A stretch of 62,471 bases of DNA, counting the filler, from Globobulimina sp. (lineage: Eukaryota): the NCBI GenBank assembly GCA_003354225.1. It is 17 parts of 17 records of this genome, joined end to end, with 100 filler letters (N's around TTAATTAATTAA, not from the genome) between each part and the next. Parts side by side here need not be neighbours in the genome. Positions count along the whole stretch, not along the records: positions 55,223 to 58,797 come from PIVH01002473.1; 16 more parts are not named here. The stretch is one strand, 5' to 3'. Positions 1 to 58,797 of the stretch are shown here, piece after piece. Each line of letters begins with the position of its first letter. The first letter of the stretch is position 1. The notes beneath the pieces were generated by a model, which was given only the letters and a program-made list of their open reading frames with translations, did no database searches and had not been told where the DNA came from. The position numbers and the translations under genes were made by a program.

Positions 1-939
1 AATAAAATGTTGTATTACCATAAATATGCAAAGTCACTACATCTGATTTATTGTATGAATAATTATTTTTTGTAACTTTAATAGTAACCTTGACCTTAAT
101 CGTTTTAATAGACAGAGGTAATTTTAATAATTGAACTCCTATCTTACATTTGGAATCCTCTATACTTCCTATTGATACTTTTGGTTTTATTGTCATACAA
201 AAGCAATCATTGTTAAAATTTTGCGAGAAAAACACATGCCGTTTATGGTCAGAAGTTATTCTAAAATGCTCCAACAATATTCCATCAATGTTCCATTTAT
301 ATTGACATTGCTTTTGAATAAAAATATAATTTTCATTCTTTTTATTTTCAATGTTGTCATTATTTTTGTGAATGATATGTATAATATCAACAAAACAGAC
401 AAAGTCTAATCTTTTGGGTTCCAATTGTTGCAATGTAGCATTGCGAAGAATTCTATTATGCCAAGCTGTTGACTCACATTTTGATGTAAATTCCACAGAA
501 TTTTTCCATTCCGATTGTGTTTGTAGACATTTTAATTCATAATAAACACTGATTGCTGATATTGCTGGGTCCCATTTGTGCATTTTTAATGAAAATTGTA
601 CATAGCCAATACTAACGCCTTGCGTTGGGTTTCTGCATAACGCACATTCGAATGCTACTTTATTTTGCACAAAAGTTCGGCTTTTGAACTTTTTACCCTT
701 TTTGCTTTGGAAAAATTCCTGCAGAGCTTCACCACAAAATGTCTTAAAATGGAAATAATTGAAAATCAAAAAGAGATGTACGTGTTTTTGTGATGTGTAT
801 GGCATACCCAAATTAACCCATTTTGACAAAATAATTGCAATAAAATAATCACATCATCGGGAATAGCAAATCCTATGTAACGTCTGCTATATTGAGCAAT
901 CAAATATTTCTGTCTTTGTTTTCTTTTGTTTAACTCCAT
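1..939 (-). CDS. Hypothetical eukaryotic protein, 3'-truncated, with intron 743-807; possible MATH-like repeats
   Basis: ATG at 939. Splicing TGG|GTATGC...TTTTAAG|ACA joins ..GLIW to TFCGEALQEFF.., and the frame stays open to the contig edge. The repeat-like segment YKWNIDG..F..F.SQNF...FC is only a weak match. Confidence 0.6.
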
Positions 940-1000
940 TAAATTCACAAAAACGTTTTTAATTTAAATAAAGTTTTTATTTTAACCGAGAATAATAATC

Positions 1001-1927
1001 ATGTTCACTCGGTTCACTCGTCGTGGTCTGAACACGATCCACCTCAATGCATATATTGATAAGAGTATGATGAGTTCATTGCCAACCTCACAATCATTGC
1101 ATAATGAAAACATTCAAAAGGAGTTTAGTATTCAATCGAATAACTTTTTTGACTTCAACAAGAAAGCTTCATTTGATTTAGTTCAACCATTGATTGATAG
1201 CGCAAAGATGGTTCATTCCGCGTTACCCAATCCGCAACAATGCGAAATATTGGATATAGCCTGCGGTCCTGGCTTGATATCATTGGAATGTGCCAAACAA
1301 TTAAGTCCATCCAAAAAGATAATTGGCATTGATATTACAAATGATATGTTGGATATTGCCAGAAAACATGCATTGGACAATGACGTTAAAACTGGATCAT
1401 CAAACGAATGCATCTTGGATTTTACCAATGGAAATGTGGAGGAGTTGCCGTTCGAAGACAATACGTTCGATATTGTGATTACCAGATGGACTTTTCATCA
1501 CTTTGAGGAATTGGAGAAAATATTAAAACAAATCTATAGAGTGTTAAAACCGGAAAACGGTACATTGTTATTTATGGAATTAAATGCGCCAACACACTCC
1601 GTGAAATTGGAAAAGTTGTATAATGCAATTGAAACAATACGTGATCCGACACATATATGGGCATACAATAGATATGGATGGATGGAACAACTAATAAATG
1701 CCGGATTTGAGACAGAAAAAATAAAACTTTATAGTGAGTTTTTAGGCGCACCGAGACATTTCATGCAATGGATCAAACAAACCACTGCTTCAGAAAGAGA
1801 AAGTTTATATGTATTATGTGAGGAATTGTATAATCATAATATTGATATTGGCTTTAATCTCGAGGCAAATGAAGACAATGAATTGCTAATGAAACATTCG
1901 TTCATTATCATCGGAGCAGAAAAATAA
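1001..1927 (+). CDS. Class I SAM-dependent methyltransferase (UbiE/Methyltransf_11-like), possible mitochondrial presequence
   Basis: Motif I ILDIACGPG, IGIDIT..ML, GNVEELPFEDNTFDIV, ILKQIYRVLKPENG. The N-terminus is Arg-rich and lacks acidic residues. Confidence 0.9.
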   Translation: MFTRFTRRGLNTIHLNAYIDKSMMSSLPTSQSLHNENIQKEFSIQSNNFFDFNKKASFDLVQPLIDSAKMVHSALPNPQQCEILDIACGPGLISLECAKQLSPSKKIIGIDITNDMLDIARKHALDNDVKTGSSNECILDFTNGNVEELPFEDNTFDIVITRWTFHHFEELEKILKQIYRVLKPENGTLLFMELNAPTHSVKLEKLYNAIETIRDPTHIWAYNRYGWMEQLINAGFETEKIKLYSEFLGAPRHFMQWIKQTTASERESLYVLCEELYNHNIDIGFNLEANEDNELLMKHSFIIIGAEK

Positions 1928-54265: not shown

Positions 54266-55223
54266 TGCACTTCATTCATTTATTTGTTATATATATATAT
54301 ATATATATTGTTCCATTTCATTTCATTTCATTTCATTCATATCTTTCATCCATATTTAATATATTATTATTTATAATTAATTAATTAATTTATTTATTTG
54401 TTTTTTATCTCAAAAATGTGTATAGCCCATTTAATGCATTTTTTCTTATTCCTATTTTTTTCTATAATGTGTTATTTCTTTTTTTTTAATTGTTTGCATT
54501 GTTCGAAACATGTTTTTTCTTTTCAACTTTGTTTCGATCTTATTTTGTCTCGTTCGTTTTTTTTATCATTGTTTTTTTTTGTTTGTTTTGTTTTGTTTGG
54601 TTTGGTAACGTTGGTTGGTAAATATATCATTCATTGTGTGTTAGATTAGGAGTTGTATCTTAGCCCTCCTTCTTGTCATACTTTTTGTTTTTTTTTTTAA
54701 ATTATCCACACCGATCATTGTTCCTTAAACGCGAATTTAAACAAAATTCTTAATATTATTTGATTGATTTATTGTTTAACGCATATCATATTATTCAAAC
54801 ATATTTCCATTGTGATGACTATTCACCACATCCTTAAATTGTTTGCAACAAATCACCGCATCATTCACCACATTGTTTGCAACAAATCTATGGATATCGC
54901 AAATAAGAACTAAAAAAGTAAAATATGGATTGGCTTAATTGAAACATTCAAATCTTGGTTTATACTAATTTTCATAATCATTGTCGTTCATGTTTTAGGA
55001 TCCGTAGACTTTTGGAATTTTGGAACTTTGCGATTCTTCTGTTCCCACAGTTGTGAAGTTTTGGAAATGTTCAGAACTTCGTTTTTTTTTTATTGTTTCG
55101 AGATGTCATACACAGATCTCAANNNNNNNNNNNNNNNNNNNNNNNNNNNNNNNNNNNNNNNNNNNNTTAATTAATTAANNNNNNNNNNNNNNNNNNNNNN
55201 NNNNNNNNNNNNNNNNNNNNNNA

Positions 55224-55853
55224 AAGTACGCCCTCGAAGAAGACGGTGACGAACCCGGGGCCAGCGATGCCCGTTTCAAAGTTGTAAAGGCCGACAAAAG
55301 CAAAGGCAGCGCTACGGGCTACATAGCAAAATACATCTCAAAAAATATTGATGGTTACAATGTTGAAGCGGATCATTATGGGCGAAATGCCATTGAGTCA
55401 GCCGTTCGCATTGAAGCGTGGGCCTCAATCAATAATATACGCCAATTCCAGCAGATTGGCGGTGCCAGTATAACGGTATGGCGAGAGCTTAGGCGGCTAG
55501 AAACTACGGGCAATAAAGATCTATTAGAAGAACTTTCTCAAGCGGCAGACAAAGGTAACTGGGCTCTATACACCGAACTTATGGGGGGAGCAATTTGCCC
55601 CCGTAAAGAACGCCCCCTTCGCCCTATGATGATCGAGCGCCCAGAAGAAAATCGTTATGGCACTATTGTTAAGCGGCTTGAGGGCTTATGGTTTGGCGTA
55701 GTGGCTGTAGCCACTCGCACCCACGTATGGACTATTCGCGTAATTAGAGATCGTCTCGCTGAAAATTCAGACAGTATTGACGGTGTTGGTTTTGGGGTTG
55801 GTCTTTCTCAAGCTCCGCCGCAAGGCGGTGTCCCCTTGGAGTTCTGTCAATAA
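55224..55853 (+). CDS. P2-like replication initiator protein A (HUH rolling-circle endonuclease), C-terminal part, 5'-truncated
   Basis: The frame is open from the contig edge: SATGYIAKYISKNIDG (YxxxY catalytic tyrosines), AWAS...IRQFQQIGG..TVWRELRRL, AADKGNWALY..LMGG, ENRYG. The ORF track calls only the last 90 aa. Confidence 0.92.
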   Translation, partial: KYALEEDGDEPGASDARFKVVKADKSKGSATGYIAKYISKNIDGYNVEADHYGRNAIESAVRIEAWASINNIRQFQQIGGASITVWRELRRLETTGNKDLLEELSQAADKGNWALYTELMGGAICPRKERPLRPMMIERPEENRYGTIVKRLEGLWFGVVAVATRTHVWTIRVIRDRLAENSDSIDGVGFGVGLSQAPPQGGVPLEFCQ

Positions 55854-55857
55854 CTGT
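55815..55857 (+). promoter_or_regulatory. P2/186-type rolling-circle origin (gpA nick site) with preceding GC hairpin
   Basis: CCCCTTGGAGTTCTGTCAATAACTGT (55832-55857) resembles the recalled P2 ori GCGCCTCG^GAGTCCTGTCAATAACTGT. Hairpin CCGCC-GCAA-GGCGG at 55815-55828. Confidence 0.75.
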
Positions 55858-56116
55858 ACGGACAAAGCTGAAGGATGTAAATTTGATTGAAAAACAAAAT
55901 ACCAATCGGCGACCAACATACAAGTTGTAGGCAGGATTAACACACAAGCGATGTGTCGCTTTGACATCCTCAAAAAATGAAAAGCGCCGAACCATTCGTA
56001 AGTACGTGTCGGCTTTTCCCCCAGTAACGGACTGTTGCGACACATAAAAACAGTATAAATTTATGACGGTTTTGTGCCAAAAACAGACCCCACAAAATTT
56101 CCTAAAGAAAAACCAA

Positions 56117-56338
56117 TCAACCTTCTTTCTTAATCTGAAGCGCCTTTGGCCCTTTTGGTGCATCTGCAACAGTAAAGCTAACAGTATCTCCCTCTAATAG
56201 GTTTTTATCATCGTCAGCAACATCATCACAAAAAAAGAAAAGATCCTTACCTTTATCTCTTCTTATAAACCCAAAGCCTTTGAAATGATCATACATCCTA
56301 ACACGACCAAACTGCCTTTCTTCTAATATCATTCCCAT
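56117..56338 (-). CDS. Cold-shock domain protein, retron-associated (likely start ATG 56332, overlapping the RT stop as ATGA)
   Basis: RNP1 KGFGFI, RNP2-like DLFFF, LLEGDTVSF, KGPKA. It overlaps the 3' end of the RT gene. Confidence 0.92.
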   Translation of the reverse strand: MGMILEERQFGRVRMYDHFKGFGFIRRDKGKDLFFFCDDVADDDKNLLEGDTVSFTVADAPKGPKALQIKKEG

Positions 56339-57510
56339 ATCTCTTTGTAAGTGGGTAAGCCTGAGTGTTTTCTGCTCAACTGTTTCCGTAACGACTTGGC
56401 GAGCGCCTTGTCCGTTCTACCAAGAATGCCCAGCTGATGCTCAAGCCTACCAACACGCTTTAATAACCCAACTTTATTATGTGTTTTCTTGGAAGAATTA
56501 CAGATTTTTTTTACCTGATAAACAATATTTTTAGTGGCCGACCAATCATACATTGGCAGAATTTCACCTAAACGGTGACGGAGTTTTTTTGCCTGCTTAT
56601 GGTTAAGCCTTCCTAACTTTGCAACCAAGCCTGAGGTGTTGTTCCATAGCTTATGGTAAGACTCTGCAAAGGGAGATCTAATATATTCTTGTTCGCAAAT
56701 AAAAACCTGATGCCTAATTTGGCGACGATCTACCTTTCTTAACCGAGGCTGATTATTTCCAATCCAGAGCCCAGTAACTTTAAAGTGTTCAGGATCGGCA
56801 GAGTGTTTTTTAGTTTCTACCTTTGTTTTTTTGTTATTTATTTTTAGCCCGTGCTTTGAAAACATTCCCGCAAGGGTTTTAATATGCTTCGTCACCTCAT
56901 CATTATTTAAATCTTCAGGATATGAAATGGCAATGTCGTCGAGAAGCCTACTATACGCAATGCCTTGCCCCCTTAACTTTGAGACTATTCTGTACTCCGT
57001 ATTGAAAAACAACAAGTTGGCAATATAGGTCGAGGTACATGCTCCCTGCGGCACTTTATTCCCCAAGGTTACAATACGAGTTAAAACCTCAGAAACCTCA
57101 TCGGGAAACTTAAAAAAATATTTAAAGATATCGTTCACATAATTAGGGCGAATATTATCAAAATATTTTTTAATATCCACACTAACTATGGTCTTTGCAT
57201 TTTTATGAATTTCAGCATTTCTAACATAGTCACGCCTATTTCCTGCATCTCGAATACCTCCCTGCAAGTAAACAGGATATTTAACCTTTTCGAATATACG
57301 GGAATTTATTCTTTTCTGGAGTTTCTTGAGCTCATACTTCGGCTCGTACACAGTTCTAGGTTTTTTATTTTTTATTGTAAGTTCAAACTCAGTATAAGAT
57401 TCACTGGTTTTATTCGATATATCCAGAAGTAGCTGAGGCCTTATGCCTAGCGTTTTCGATAAGGTATCAATACTCGATATGGGTTTGTATGGGTAGTAGG
57501 GCTTGTCCAA
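56329..57510 (-). CDS. Retron-type reverse transcriptase (393 aa, TTG start)
   Basis: Region X NAEIH (98-102), VDIKKYFDNI, PQGACTS, YSRLLDD (LLDD 189-192), region Y VTG (245-247). RBS TAAGGA lies 7 nt upstream of the TTG. Confidence 0.95.
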   Translation of the reverse strand: MDKPYYPYKPISSIDTLSKTLGIRPQLLLDISNKTSESYTEFELTIKNKKPRTVYEPKYELKKLQKRINSRIFEKVKYPVYLQGGIRDAGNRRDYVRNAEIHKNAKTIVSVDIKKYFDNIRPNYVNDIFKYFFKFPDEVSEVLTRIVTLGNKVPQGACTSTYIANLLFFNTEYRIVSKLRGQGIAYSRLLDDIAISYPEDLNNDEVTKHIKTLAGMFSKHGLKINNKKTKVETKKHSADPEHFKVTGLWIGNNQPRLRKVDRRQIRHQVFICEQEYIRSPFAESYHKLWNNTSGLVAKLGRLNHKQAKKLRHRLGEILPMYDWSATKNIVYQVKKICNSSKKTHNKVGLLKRVGRLEHQLGILGRTDKALAKSLRKQLSRKHSGLPTYKEIWE

Positions 57511-57533
57511 CGATACATCCTTAAAGCGCCAGC

Positions 57534-57970
57534 AAAATGTAAGAAGTCTACATACTGTTAAAAATGTCCATTATGAACCTCGTCAACGGTACGACCCATA
57601 AAGCGAAAGCTGAAATACCAGTCTTCCACGGTTTACGAATGTCATGCTCAACTTGCTTATCAACTACTGGCTCTACTCTAGAATCAGTGGTCTTATTTTT
57701 ACTTAAAGTTACTTGTAATTTAATGCTCATTGTAATCATTTGATTACTCCTTTTCGGTTAATGCAACAACGATTGCTGAAGCGCCAGACCAGAAAAGACT
57801 GAACTAGAGATAAATTAGTTGAGCGTTGACAGACTTCTTACTTTTACGCCAGACAACTGTCGCCATAAAGTTATACGCGGCATATGCGGCACAGGGCACG
57901 CGATTGGGCGCAGGTATGGCTCCAGGAGACGGGTCATGATCCTTTACAGGATCGCACAAAGCGTCGATTC
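57534..57970 (-). ncRNA. Putative retron ncRNA (msr/msd-like) region enclosing the small ORF; boundaries approximate
   Basis: Inverted repeat GTAAGAAGTCT (57539-57549) / AGACTTCTTAC (57831-57841), extendable by 4 bp across a 1-nt bulge. Hairpins AACTA..TAGTT (57802-57820) and GATCCT-GTAA-AGGATC (57938-57953). The region lies directly upstream of a retron RT. Confidence 0.6.
57548..57739 (-). CDS. Small 63-aa protein with hydrophobic/amphipathic C-terminus, candidate retron effector
   Basis: AAGGAG RBS 7 nt before the ATG; co-oriented and 37 nt upstream of the RT; C-terminal GISAFALWVVPLTRFIMDIF. Confidence 0.65.
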   Translation of the reverse strand: MITMSIKLQVTLSKNKTTDSRVEPVVDKQVEHDIRKPWKTGISAFALWVVPLTRFIMDIFNSM

Positions 57971-58565
57971 CCTAGTATTTCCAAGTAACAGTAAAAAATA
58001 GCAAACAGGCGAATACACCTGCATGGCTGTAATTTAATTTATATCAATTAGTAAGTAAAGAGCTAAATGGACTGAGCATAGGAAGGATTAATACCCTCAT
58101 TTCTCTCAATCTACCATAATAAGAAACTATCTCGGCCACCTAAGTTTTAGCGATGACTGCCCAGCATAGAATATTTGGGGTCAGAGTAAAAATACAAACG
58201 ACCGCCTTAAGTCATCAAAGACTATATCGCTCTAAAGTCTGCTATGGGTTAAATAACTGCCCATCGTCAATATTTTCTTTCTATCGATGTCCGCTTTATG
58301 AACATATAGAGTCATCCAGCAGGCAATCCTTTGCGCCCCACCAGTCATTAGTAGGTTGCAATAAGACTATTTGTAATGCATTTTGACAAGTCATTACACA
58401 ATGCAGCACCACCTCGTAATGCAGAAAGGCAGTATTTTAAACATGGCTATGGCCCTGAGAAGAGCATCGTCTAAATTTTGTCAGAACGACTACTATGTAA
58501 TTTACAAAGAAAACGATATTGACTATAAAGCAGCCACATTGTCATATAGGCCGTTGATTTATAAG

Positions 58566-58619
58566 TGGTGCCGGGGCCGGACTTGAACGGCATGGAGTTA
58601 CCTCCGAGGGATTTTAAGT
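58566..58619 (-). pseudogene. 3' half of tRNA-Leu(TAA), att-site-like remnant
   Basis: The minus strand reads ACTTAAAATCCCTCGGAGGTAACTCCATGCCG-TTCAAGTCCGGCCCCGGCACCA: anticodon loop, long variable arm, T arm (1-nt deletion) and CCA. The 5' half is absent. Confidence 0.85.
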
Positions 58620-58739
58620 TCTCCCACTAGAAAAGAGGCTTTGAAACTTTGAAACGGACTTAATATGGCCTTAAATTTAAGAAAATTAAAACCTAATAGA
58701 AACCACTCAACTCTATCTATATGTTTTTAAAGGTTTATA

Positions 58740-58797
58740 TGGTCGGGACGAGAGGATTTGAACCTCTGACCACCACACCCCCAGTGTGGTGCGCTAC
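58740..58797 (-). tRNA. tRNA-Pro(GGG), 5' end cut by the contig edge
   Basis: The minus strand reads GTAGCGCA-CCACA-CTGGGGG-TGTGG-TGGTC-AGAGG-TTCAAAT-CCTCT-CGTCCCG-ACCA, with encoded CCA (bacterial type). Confidence 0.92.

Follow-up and report, generated by a model that had tools for sequence, protein, structure and literature searches.

A predicted, covarying long-range helix encloses a small ORF in the leader RNA of a type V retron

An inverted repeat that brackets a small open reading frame (ORF) upstream of a reverse transcriptase (RT) gene was analyzed in a stretch of 62,471 nucleotides (the window; filler included) from the Globobulimina sp. assembly GCA_003354225.1. Judged by comparison of homologous loci, the repeat almost certainly forms a structural helix that is conserved in type V retron RNA; the comparison demonstrates that the helices, repeats, and ORF are conserved and covarying. 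We consider it probable, a role in priming included, that this is the closing stem of the small-protein mRNA domain and that it places the 3′ end of the RNA at the msd base. DNA synthesis is most likely started with the help of the stem on the hairpin upstream of it, and not on the small gene. The repeat reported in a preliminary description is confirmed as an observation, and the mechanism proposed there (the small ORF as the reverse-transcribed template) is rejected.

Assignment of the locus to the type V retrons

The window is a chain of approximately 3.6-kb contigs joined by N44-TTAATTAATTAA-N44 linkers, and the features of the contig that carries the repeat (PIVH01002473.1) are listed in Table 1. 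The RT matched the PADLOC model RT_V over its full length (5.3e-164, 544 bits; next best RT_IV, 7e-77) and Pfam RVT_1 (1.1e-19). The end of the RT gene overlaps by 10 nt an ORF that matched PADLOC CSD_V (1.3e-28) and the Pfam cold-shock domain (CSD, 7.7e-14). Type V retrons were defined by an RT of the type V clade, a linked cold-shock-domain protein of 67–86 aa, and a structured ncRNA upstream (Mestre 2020, PMC7736814); an RT of this clade, a small RT-linked CSD gene, and a conserved structured leader are all present here. The order of leader, ORF, and RT–CSD genes is identical in a Salmonella plasmid of the Se72 type (L016), whose CSD gene is annotated as 'retron Se72 family effector protein'. 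On account of the RT_V and CSD_V matches and the gene order shared with L016, the locus is assigned to the type V retrons, a known group of bacterial defences against phage, and within them to the Retron-Sen1/Se72 family. Its leader boxes and covarying stems are common to 47 other loci, Se72-type plasmids included. An Rfam scan of the contig returned no retron family (the matches were a sub-threshold tRNA piece and one chance match), and ARAGORN returned 0 genes on the contig.

When RT_V was searched against 400 genomes of one class, one full-strength match and two weaker ones were obtained. Since this yield was too low, homologous loci were drawn from metagenome and viral contigs; a contig scan with the window's RT alone gave 15 loci, of which only two were close relatives. 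Nine loci short of upstream sequence were left out, including L080 (approximately 495 nt upstream, without the exact motif). The resulting alignment, A2, comprised 48 distinct homologous loci of the Sen1/Se72-type V family. Near-identical or related DNA was also present as short contigs in two public runs (X1 and X3), in which uncovered stretches are uninformative.

Table 1. Coordinates of the retron features along the window
Feature	Position	Strand	Basis
Contig with the inverted repeat	55223..58797	.	N runs and sequence
Cold-shock-domain protein, 73 aa	56117..56338	-	PADLOC CSD_V, Pfam CSD
Retron reverse transcriptase, type V, 393 aa, TTG start	56329..57510	-	PADLOC RT_V, Pfam RVT_1
3′ arm of the inverted repeat (IR-R), core 57548-57540	57532..57549	-	Repeat search, duplex energies, RNAalifold, covariation
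Small ORF (SP), 63 aa	57548..57739	-	ORF call, comparison of 48 loci
Predicted H2, 3′ strand, within the small ORF, codons around KQVE	57640..57652	-	RNAalifold/covariation, repeat search
Shine-Dalgarno (SD) AAGGAG of the small ORF	57747..57752	-	Sequence
Motif 2 (GGTCTGGC), second GTCYGGC copy, between the pyrimidine tract and the small-ORF ribosome-binding site	57783..57790	-	Invariant A2 columns
Predicted H2, 5′ strand: TGTCA 57831-57827 and CTCAAC 57823-57818, G57830 included	57818..57831	-	A2 columns 294-298/539-543, 304-309/531-536
5′ arm of the inverted repeat (IR-L), core 57840-57832	57831..57847	-	Repeat search, duplex energies, RNAalifold, covariation
Motif 1 (TTGTCTGGC), first GTCYGGC copy, directly 5′ of the 5′ arm	57848..57856	-	Invariant A2 columns
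Candidate msd, hypervariable imperfect hairpin, conserved ATGACC to invariant TTGTCTGGC	57848..57937	-	Folds, comparison of loci
Predicted msr-like stem-loops P1 and P2	57938..57965	-	A2 columns 117-119/147-149, 150-153/175-178
Predicted P0 hairpin (CAGGT/GCCTG), 5′ edge of the conserved leader	58006..58021	-	RNAalifold, A2 columns 32-36/46-50

Conservation and covariation of the inverted repeat

The best of the seven inverted pairs found by a repeat search of 57400–58100 has 15-nt arms (57535–57549 and 57831–57845) that are 93% complementary and lie 281 nt apart. The preliminary description, which had reported arms approximately 280 nt apart, the 3′ one overlapping the TAG stop codon of the small ORF (57550–57548), and a G at 57830 following the 5′ arm, was correct on each of these points. 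On the transcript (−) strand, the helix reaches from 57847–57831 paired with 57549–57532, with one bulged A (57538) and one G–U pair. Judged by the window alone, the repeat is not beyond chance expectation; a gapless 15-nt repeat with at most one mismatch was obtained in 27 of 300 dinucleotide shuffles of the 701-nt region.

The repeat is placed beyond chance by covariation and by the preference for cognate arms across the 48 loci. Across them, the segment immediately 3′ of an invariant TTGTCYGGC box pairs with the one immediately 3′ of the small-ORF stop codon. Cognate arms averaged −19.3 kcal/mol in duplex energy; for non-cognate arms the mean was −11.5 (sd 3.9), and shuffling the arms gave −9.1. 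The cognate partner ranked first in 18 loci and among the top five in 42. RNAalifold on A2 predicted the repeat helix (IR) and two further helices (H2 and H3) without guidance. For IR, 87.9% of the alignment cells were paired (71.9% in shuffles) and 79 cells carried double changes (27.8 in shuffles), values that none of 500 shuffles equaled; slid controls reached at most 52.9% of cells paired. Over all 37 predicted pairs, 91.4% of cells were paired versus 76.2%, and compensatory changes were observed in 32. Covariation among homologues, on which the preliminary description had made its reading depend, is thus present, with compensatory changes in all eight pairs of the IR core. Chance complementarity, in which the repeat would have no function in the window, agrees with the frequency of equally good repeats in shuffles of the region; against the IR covariation, the slid controls, and the better pairing of cognate arms, its probability is negligible.

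Organization of the leader RNA and the small ORF

The conserved leader opens with P0, which was paired in 98.6% of cells with compensatory changes in three of its five pairs, and continues with a T-rich box (GCTCTTTAA in most relatives). The msr-like stem-loops P1 and P2, the latter formed by GATCC (57953–57949) and GGATC (57942–57938), were paired in 100% of cells, with compensatory changes in two of three and two of four pairs, respectively. The candidate msd follows, measuring 70–92 nt in the 46 of 48 loci with the anchor. In the minimum free energy folds, its CCGG region paired with motif 1 in 37 of these 46 loci, so that the hairpin is closed by CCGG/CTGG. The hairpin was only modestly more stable than its shuffles, with z averaging −1.21 and falling below −2 in 14 of the 46 loci.

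Motif 1 was found by pattern in 61 of 68 loci and as variants, detected by a covariance model of the type V leader (R1), in the other seven; R1 recovered the leader in 7 of 7 further type V loci. Motif 2 follows motif 1 by 59–68 nt in the 61 loci with both motifs. The 5′ arm begins directly 3′ of motif 1 in 48 of 48 aligned loci. The arms enclose the riboregulator and the ORF, and the msr-like stems and msd-like hairpin stand 5′ of the 5′ arm. Neither visual inspection nor the RNAalifold output revealed a canonical a1 5′ of the msr stems, and no conserved 3′-end signal was found past the 3′ arm.

A corresponding ORF of 59–73 aa is open in all 48 loci, and in the window it has an alternating strand-like N-terminal pattern, a KQV motif, and a hydrophobic C-terminal helix. 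AlphaFold2 modelled a helix over residues 37–62 (block pLDDT 74–90), the rest being of low confidence. No family for the protein was retrieved from Pfam, NCBIfam, or PADLOC (SP_VI included), and the ESM Atlas yielded no usable match. Among 18 non-independent pairs of loci, 219, 175, and 237 substitutions fell on the three codon positions, and single changes in the same number of non-independent pairs were synonymous in 86 and non-synonymous in 214 cases; the pattern carries no clear coding signal, and the support for protein-level constraint is weak. The ORF is unannotated in the plasmid records examined, an omission of concern to annotators.

In predicted folds of the 48 loci, mean pairing was 0.75 for the SD, 0.66 for the AUG, and 0.65 overall; the excess for the SD is small and was obtained with no null model. 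In 38 of the 48 folds, the SD pairs mainly with a segment immediately 5′ of motif 2; in the window's own fold, its main partner lies 58 nt 3′ of the motif 2 start, away from motif 2. The only RNA-library contig fitting the locus (442 nt, 57566–58003) covers the leader and ORF without the RT, and, as contigs show neither ends nor level, it gives a weak hint of a hybrid RNA.

Role of G57830 and probable direction of DNA synthesis

In the preliminary description, the repeat was provisionally read as the canonical a1/a2 stem of a retron, with the 5′ arm as a1, G57830 as the 2′-OH branching G, and the small ORF as the template of an antisense msDNA of approximately 280 nt. The arms are real and conserved, a G directly follows the 5′ arm in the window, and in topological terms the helix points its inner end toward the ORF. 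However, the G57830 column of A2 holds a G in only 19 of 48 sequences, and it is predicted to pair with a mid-ORF column in a covarying manner (AU in 17, GC in 15), the partner of G57830 in the window being C57641. The pair belongs to H2, which starts straight after the 5′ arm with zero spacer, shows compensatory changes in 11 of 11 pairs (81.3% and 98.9% of cells paired in its two segments), and in the window overlaps the second inverted pair (I2) of the repeat search. No conserved unpaired branching G was observed in A2, either at this column or after the 3′ arm.

The size of the product also opposes the ORF as template, as Se72 DNA is 72 nt long, as its name implies, whereas approximately 280 nt would be required. 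The variable msd-like hairpin lies outside the arms (57937–57848), and the DNA of related retrons derives from the upstream msr–msd, the msDNA of type VI having been mapped to the upstream stem-loop according to a preprint (bioRxiv 10.1101/2025.10.22.683967). The prototype Se72 is reported to have neither a priming G nor a 2′–5′ link (Simon 2019, PMC6868368). Branching at G57830 and copying of the ORF are therefore very improbable. What stands of the a1/a2 reading is a functional, a1/a2-like long-range RNA helix; the roles of the arms are exchanged, since by position the 5′ arm, just 3′ of the msd, corresponds to a2 and the 3′ arm to a1. Synthesis of DNA would accordingly proceed away from the ORF, and the upstream hairpin (57848–57937) would be the template.

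We propose a single structured 'hybrid' RNA, roughly 500 nt long, made up of the leader and the small ORF. In transcript order, this RNA would comprise P0, the two msr-like stem-loops, the variable msd-like hairpin ending in motif 1, and the 5′ arm, followed by a riboregulator (pyrimidine tract, second GTCTGGC, small hairpin, SD, and AUG), the 63-aa ORF, and the 3′ arm. The inverted repeat would be the closing helix of the ORF domain, forming with the covarying H2 and H3 a junction that folds up the small-protein message, and would bring the RNA's 3′ portion up to the foot of the msd hairpin. Where the 3′ arm ends, base-paired with its 5′ counterpart, the primer–template junction would then form, from which the RT would copy upstream, the GTCTGGC box first and the hairpin next. 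Priming at this end would account for both the self-priming reported for Se72 and its missing branching G. With a 5′ end complementary to the second copy of GTCTGGC, such DNA could disrupt the anti-SD pairing and permit translation of the hydrophobic-tailed small protein, as proposed for the type VI Retron-Vpa2.

A possible alternative, to which we give a smaller share of belief, is that the stem is purely structural, regulatory, or a processing signal, with priming elsewhere in the leader and independent of the arms. It might close the ORF domain and keep it untranslated and stable, or mark a cleavage freeing the leader–ORF RNA from the RT message. IR, H2, and H3 are predicted to fold up the ORF, the stop codon lies inside the 3′ arm, the SD is mostly paired in predicted folds, and the RNA-library contig lacks the RT part. 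Type VI, moreover, was toxic once the noncoding part was deleted, so the RNA fold represses the small protein there (10.1101/2025.10.22.683967). However, in every aligned locus the 5′ arm directly adjoins the invariant box that stands at the msd-like hairpin's 3′ base, which is the place of the priming stem in canonical retrons; no other conserved stem capable of acting as a1/a2 is predicted in the leader; and Se72 is reported to use the free 3′-OH of an 'alternative msr'.

Comparison with known retrons

Retron-Sen1 (Se72), a type V retron (Rychlik 2001; Pilousova & Rychlik 2011; Mestre 2020, PMC7736814), likewise combines an RT_V with an overlapping CSD gene, and its cold-shock protein has been named the effector by the field. 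The plasmid L016 has equal leader boxes, an ORF of the 60-aa class between leader and RT, and a bracketing repeat of 12 perfect pairs (GAGTTAAAAGTC with GACTTTTAACTC). The two differ in that RT identity is only approximately 43%, the arm sequences are wholly different, and the window copy is chromosomal or prophage-borne, beside a P2-type replication gene fragment, whereas the Se72 type resides on a 4-kb plasmid. In the review, the Se72 ORF is flanked by repeat regions, a possible alternative msr, and self-priming is stated (PMC6868368); the layout observed here fits this portrayal of an ORF flanked by repeats together with self-priming.

The locus resembles a canonical retron (Retron-Eco1/Ec86) in the stem adjoining the 3′ base of the msd hairpin, the msr-like stem-loops 5′ of the msd, and the downstream RT gene. 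Unlike in Eco1, the partner of the msd-adjacent arm lies approximately 280 nt downstream, past the ORF, rather than at the RNA 5′ terminus, there is no conserved unpaired G, and the contig has no Rfam retron match.

The layout parallels that of the hybrid RNA (hyRNA) of type VI, which according to the preprint has an msr–msd arm, an RBS/AUG arm, and a CDS arm, carries direct repeats of 7 nt located at the msDNA 5′ end and within the riboregulator, and anneals its 3′ end back through inverted repeats 'resembling a1/a2' (10.1101/2025.10.22.683967). The preprint maps Vpa2 DNA by experiment to the upstream msr–msd and Sen1 DNA to its 'known msd', and reports that Gam alone triggers type V, unlike Vpa2; regulation may thus differ. 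Shared with Vpa2 are inverted repeats past the small-protein stop that tie the 3′ end to the msr–msd arm, a small protein with a hydrophobic C-terminal helix (modelled here), an RT in clade 3, and, as proposed here, a single structured RNA with an msr–msd part and a small-protein CDS; a folded RBS region may be common to both. Each carries a direct repeat of 7 nt, one copy at the end of the msd and one within the riboregulator; here it is GTCYGGC, which may or may not be the Vpa2 7-mer, and the type VI repeat is said to lie in loops, whereas motif 1 is predicted in a stem base. The locus differs in having no HTH repressor gene between the ORF and RT, the CSD gene following the RT instead, and in the lack of an SP_VI match for the small protein and of HTH_VI at the locus. 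Se72, for its part, reportedly makes detectable DNA without phage.

Of 22 loci outside type V, two contained GTCYGGC, and the bona fide type VI locus L090 (SP_VI 3.6e-13, HTH_VI 9.2e-25) carries GTCTGGC twice in comparable places. R1 detected none of 26 type IV/VI or other loci under default filters; with filters off, weak matches appeared at the expected place in L090 (11.0 bits, E 0.023) and L092 (8.1 bits, E 0.11). As R1 barely detects type VI leaders, RNA homology between types V and VI rests on layout and short boxes, and we do not claim leader sequence homology beyond these boxes and the weak filter-off matches. The comparison suggests that type V shares the hybrid-RNA layout of type VI, down to the duplicated GTCYGGC box. 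Our literature search, which lay outside the primary Se72 papers and supplements, found no paper applying the hybrid-RNA model to type V, and part of the present account may already be published; the main text of the retron census preprint by Khan (2024) mentions neither Sen1 nor type V.

Implications for type V retrons

Retron-Sen1/Se72 has been odd among retrons for two decades: it primes itself, lacks a branching G, yields a double-stranded product, and has a cold-shock 'effector' that is not known to be toxic. The family-wide covariation suggests selection on the stem around the ORF and on two more helices, and the alignment suggests that the stem is placed exactly at the base of the msd-like hairpin. 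The priming site, whether the small protein is a killer, and the role of the cold-shock protein can now be tested at the bench.

A broader reading, which we put forward tentatively and consider doubtful as a whole, is that the hybrid-RNA design extends to every type V retron, Se72 among them. The small-protein message closed by the stem would act as the 'msr', self-priming reverse transcription from its 3′ end into the upstream hairpin, and would double as the mRNA of a cryptic hydrophobic-tailed toxin. The new DNA 5′ end (the GTCTGGC complement) would invade the second GTCTGGC copy and unlock translation. The cold-shock protein, at present annotated as the effector, would instead be a nucleic-acid chaperone for the switch. 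If all of this were true, a circular permutation of the a1/a2 stem would link the canonical branched retrons, type V, and type VI.

Retron locus and its genomic setting

The 62,471-base window is a chain of 17 contigs of approximately 3.6 kb each, joined by N44-TTAATTAATTAA-N44 linkers, and is not a single molecule. The features of interest are collected in the table. Under the scheme of Mestre et al. 2020 (PMC7736814), the locus belongs to the type V retrons, whose prototype is Retron-Sen1 (Se72). No retron family was matched in an Rfam scan of the contig. The reverse transcriptase (RT) of the locus shares approximately 43% identity with RTs of the Se72 type; the retron type itself is known, and this element is a divergent new member.

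Features of the retron contig and of the type VI locus used for comparison
Feature	Position	Strand	Remarks
Contig with the retron	55223-58797		features of interest all on the minus strand
Leader		minus	approximately 190 nt
msd-like segment (putative reverse-transcribed template)	57937-57848	minus	between ATGACC and the first box
Box-like places	57526-57536, 57781-57790, 57847-57856		
Helix H2	57831-57818 with 57652-57640	minus	RNAalifold; overlaps pair I2 of the repeat search
Small ORF	57739-57548	minus	63 aa
Reverse transcriptase	57510-56329	minus	393 aa, TTG start; PADLOC RT_V 5.3e-164 (runner-up RT_IV 7e-77); Pfam RVT_1
73-aa ORF	56338-56117	minus	10-nt overlap with RT end; PADLOC CSD_V 1.3e-28; Pfam CSD
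L090, metagenome type VI locus (positions within that locus)	571-1180		two GTCTGGC copies, comparably placed, plus GCTCTTTAA and GCGAC boxes, as in type V leaders

The neighbouring contigs are mostly far more AT-rich (27-35% GC) and carry long low-complexity ORFs, whereas the retron contig has approximately 39-41% GC and a bacterial character; it may therefore derive from a different organism. The far contig end (55223-55354) showed 72-73% likeness over 131 nt to 'replication endonuclease' genes of E. coli chromosomes (175 records), which suggests that the retron is situated in a P2-like prophage beside the replication gene. Upstream of the retron, two tRNA-like 3' pieces were observed at 58560-58797 on the minus strand. 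One (58750-58797), cut by the contig end, scored 27 bits as an Rfam tRNA, under the gathering score, and the second (near 58575-58640) resembles a T-arm and acceptor end. Neither piece was called by ARAGORN, and both may be attachment-site remnants.

Conservation and covariation of the inverted repeat

The preliminary description had noted an inverted repeat bracketing the small ORF and overlapping its stop codon, and both observations were confirmed: the 15-nt arms (57535-57549 and 57831-57845) are 93% complementary and 281 nt apart, and the TAG stop overlaps the 3' arm. On the transcript strand, 57847-57831 pairs with 57549-57532; a single A is bulged out, and one of the pairs is G-U. The helix was present in the minimum-energy fold of 57500-58060, a stretch more stable than its shuffles (z -3.72). 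In the window alone, the repeat was not significant: of 300 dinucleotide shuffles of the 701 nt, 27 contained a 15-mer repeat free of gaps and with no more than one mismatch.

A genome-contig scan with a single RT protein yielded two close loci, tblastn of plasmids yielded 34 records (mostly 4-kb Enterobacteriaceae plasmids of Se72 type), and a protein search yielded 286 RTs at E ≤ 1e-60, of which 25 were aligned; this alignment then brought 80 metagenome and 9 viral-contig loci. Two exact boxes were found upstream of the RT in 61 of the 77 loci inspected, TGTCYGGC at approximately 340 nt and GGTCYGGC at approximately 280 nt, with a spacing of 59-68 nt. The other 16 loci comprised eight short of upstream sequence, seven with box variants, and one (L080) that was left out. 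A covariance model of the leader (R1) recovered all seven box-variant loci (E 4.6e-24 to 6.7e-05). In the E. coli plasmid pB27_1, the match of the type V RT is confined to residues 1-322, and the gene lies directly beside blaCMY-2 and ISEcp1; apparently, a retron from a small ColE-type plasmid was truncated when a resistance module inserted into a large IncF plasmid.

The best duplex in each of the 61 two-box loci, formed by the 40 nt after the first box with the 80 nt before the RT start, begins 0-5 nt past the first box. For the 48 distinct arm pairs among these loci, cognate arms had a mean duplex energy of -19.3 kcal/mol, whereas non-cognate arms averaged -11.5 (sd 3.9) and shuffled arms -9.1; the cognate partner ranked first in 18 and within the top five in 42. 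The arm sequences are wholly unlike across lineages (e.g., GTAAGAAGTC, GGTTAGGAGTT, GGCTGAAAGC, and TACTAAGGGGC). After the 48 regions had been aligned with MAFFT (A2, 782 columns), unguided RNAalifold predicted the repeat helix (columns 285-293 with 691-699). Its paired cells (87.9% vs. 71.9% in shuffles), cells with both-side changes (79 vs. 27.8), and covariation score (0.563 vs. 0.275) were each reached by 0 of 500 shuffles. The helix thus covaries across the 48 loci, with compensatory changes at 8 of 8 pairs. Slid controls, which keep relatedness as the shuffle control does not, gave at most 52.9% of cells paired. In the window and in L026, the locus most closely related to it, the 3' arm is followed by a third sequence, TTGCTGGCGC, that looks like the two GTCTGGC boxes; the other A2 loci do not conserve it.

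Junction, proposed branching G, and likely template

RNAalifold on A2 also predicted a leader hairpin (P0), msr-like stem-loops (P1 and P2), and two further helices. H2 joins the nucleotides directly 3' of the 5' arm to mid-ORF codons around KQV, with compensatory changes at 11 of 11 pairs, and H3 closes the 3' half of the ORF, adjoining the 3' arm. Across all 37 predicted pairs, 91.4% of cells were paired, compared with 76.2% in shuffles, and 32 pairs were compensatory. Because H2, H3, and the repeat are predicted and covary, the repeat is, on comparative grounds, the closing stem of a junction predicted to fold up the entire small-ORF message. The comparison thus shows a conserved three-helix junction, a duplicated box, an msd-like hairpin adjoining the 5' arm on its 5' side, and a conserved small ORF.

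G57830, immediately after the 5' arm, had been proposed as a retron branching G, with the ORF as the template. The alignment argues against this proposal: column 295 holds G in only 19 of 48 sequences and pairs with column 542 (C57641), as AU in 17 and GC in 15. H2 begins directly after the 5' arm without a spacer, and no conserved G was found after the 3' arm in the 48 aligned regions. As judged from the alignment, G57830 is a covarying helix position and not a conserved unpaired G, which agrees with the review by Simon et al. 2019 (PMC6868368), where Se72 is reported to have no apparent priming guanosine and no observed 2'-5' link. Branching at G57830 on an ORF template is thus highly improbable.

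The template is likely the hypervariable hairpin 5' of the 5' arm. The segment from the conserved ATGACC to the first box is hypervariable; where the anchor is present (46 of 48 loci), it measures 70-92 nt. A long imperfect hairpin, pairing CCGG with CTGG of the box, appeared in 37 of the 46 minimum-energy folds; its stability was only modestly above that of shuffles (mean z -1.21; z < -2 in 14 of 46). The matching segment in the Se72-type plasmid measures 82 nt, a length compatible with a 72-nt product. Positionally, the 5' arm, directly 3' of this hairpin, corresponds to a2 of the canonical retron priming stem, and the 3' arm to an a1 moved behind the ORF.

Small ORF and its predicted regulation

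The 63-aa ORF of the window matched nothing in Pfam or PADLOC, SP_VI included; relatives of the small protein matched no Pfam or NCBIfam family, and the ESM Atlas gave no lead. The ORF is open in 48 of 48 loci (59-73 aa). AlphaFold2 predicted a helix at residues 37-62 (block pLDDT 74-90), with low values for the remainder. Mean predicted pairing of the Shine-Dalgarno (SD) sequence was 0.75, compared with 0.65 overall in the 48 loci; in 38 of 48 loci the SD pairs chiefly with sequence directly 5' of the second box, whereas the window's own fold places the main partner elsewhere. Across 18 non-independent pairs of close relatives, ORF differences by codon position numbered 219/175/237, and single changes were 86 synonymous vs. 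214 non-synonymous. The small ORF thus appears to change almost like random DNA, and the case for its translation therefore rests on its openness everywhere, its SD and start codon, and the shared architecture, not on sequence conservation. In the Se72-type plasmid records L016 (1497-1679), L019, L020, and L021, from Salmonella, Klebsiella, Hafnia, and Pectobacterium, an ORF of approximately 60 aa between leader and RT is unannotated. The cold-shock gene of the Salmonella record is named 'retron Se72 family effector protein'.

Of five public runs, three contained all or part of the stretch, in each case in the form of assembled contigs. The single fitting contig of metatranscriptome run X2 (442 nt; 21 other letters, 8 gaps) spans 57566-58003 over its full length, covering the leader and most of the ORF and no RT. 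As contigs show no ends, strand, or level, it hints only weakly at a separate leader-ORF RNA.

Proposed priming and relation to type VI retrons

We somewhat favor a role for the 3' arm as the primer: paired to the 5' arm, it would place an RNA 3' terminus where the msd-like hairpin has its base, and the RT would extend this terminus upstream into the hairpin. This reading matches the review's account of Se72 (PMC6868368), which is said to self-prime from a free 3'-OH and whose repeat-flanked ORF, already on record there, is possibly an 'alternative msr'. The main alternative, in which the stem only represses, stabilizes, or processes the message and priming occurs elsewhere, appears less likely. 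The ORF region of Se72 is reportedly needed for DNA production, which priming from the 3' arm could explain because deletion of the ORF removes both the 3' arm and H2. More tentatively, and with a chance below even, the 5' end of the DNA, being complementary to the second box, might open the anti-SD pairing and so unlock translation of the small protein.

By sequence comparison, type V loci appear to have the same layout as the hybrid RNA of type VI Retron-Vpa2 (10.1101/2025.10.22.683967). According to that 2025 preprint, the RNA of approximately 470 nt comprises three arms: an msr-msd arm; a second arm that conceals the RBS and AUG for a small toxic protein whose C-terminal helix is hydrophobic; and a third that carries the remaining CDS. 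Its 3' end anneals to the first arm, with inverted repeats 'resembling the a1/a2 priming region', and 7-nt direct repeats occur at the msDNA 5' end and in the riboregulator. Similarly, type V loci have two invariant GTCYGGC copies in A2 and a small ORF of 59-73 aa with a predicted C-terminal helix; their SD may also be concealed, its predicted partner lying by the second box in most loci though not in the window. The Vpa2 7-mer sequence is absent from the main text of that paper, and the comparison with GTCTGGC is by layout. RT clade 3 is common to types IV, V, and VI, and Retron-Sen1 figures in the preprint solely as a relative that is triggered by Gam and has a 'known msd'.

With default filters, R1 found 0 of 26 non-type-V leaders. 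With filters off, the best matches lay exactly at the expected place but were weak: L090 (11.0 bits, E 0.023), a bona fide type VI locus (SP_VI 3.6e-13, HTH_VI 9.2e-25), and L092 (8.1 bits, E 0.11). Of 22 loci outside type V, just 2 contained the box. In the literature searched, we found no paper applying the hybrid-RNA model to type V. New for this family are the covariation evidence for the stem, H2, and H3, the rejection of a branching G, and the link drawn to the type VI hybrid RNA.
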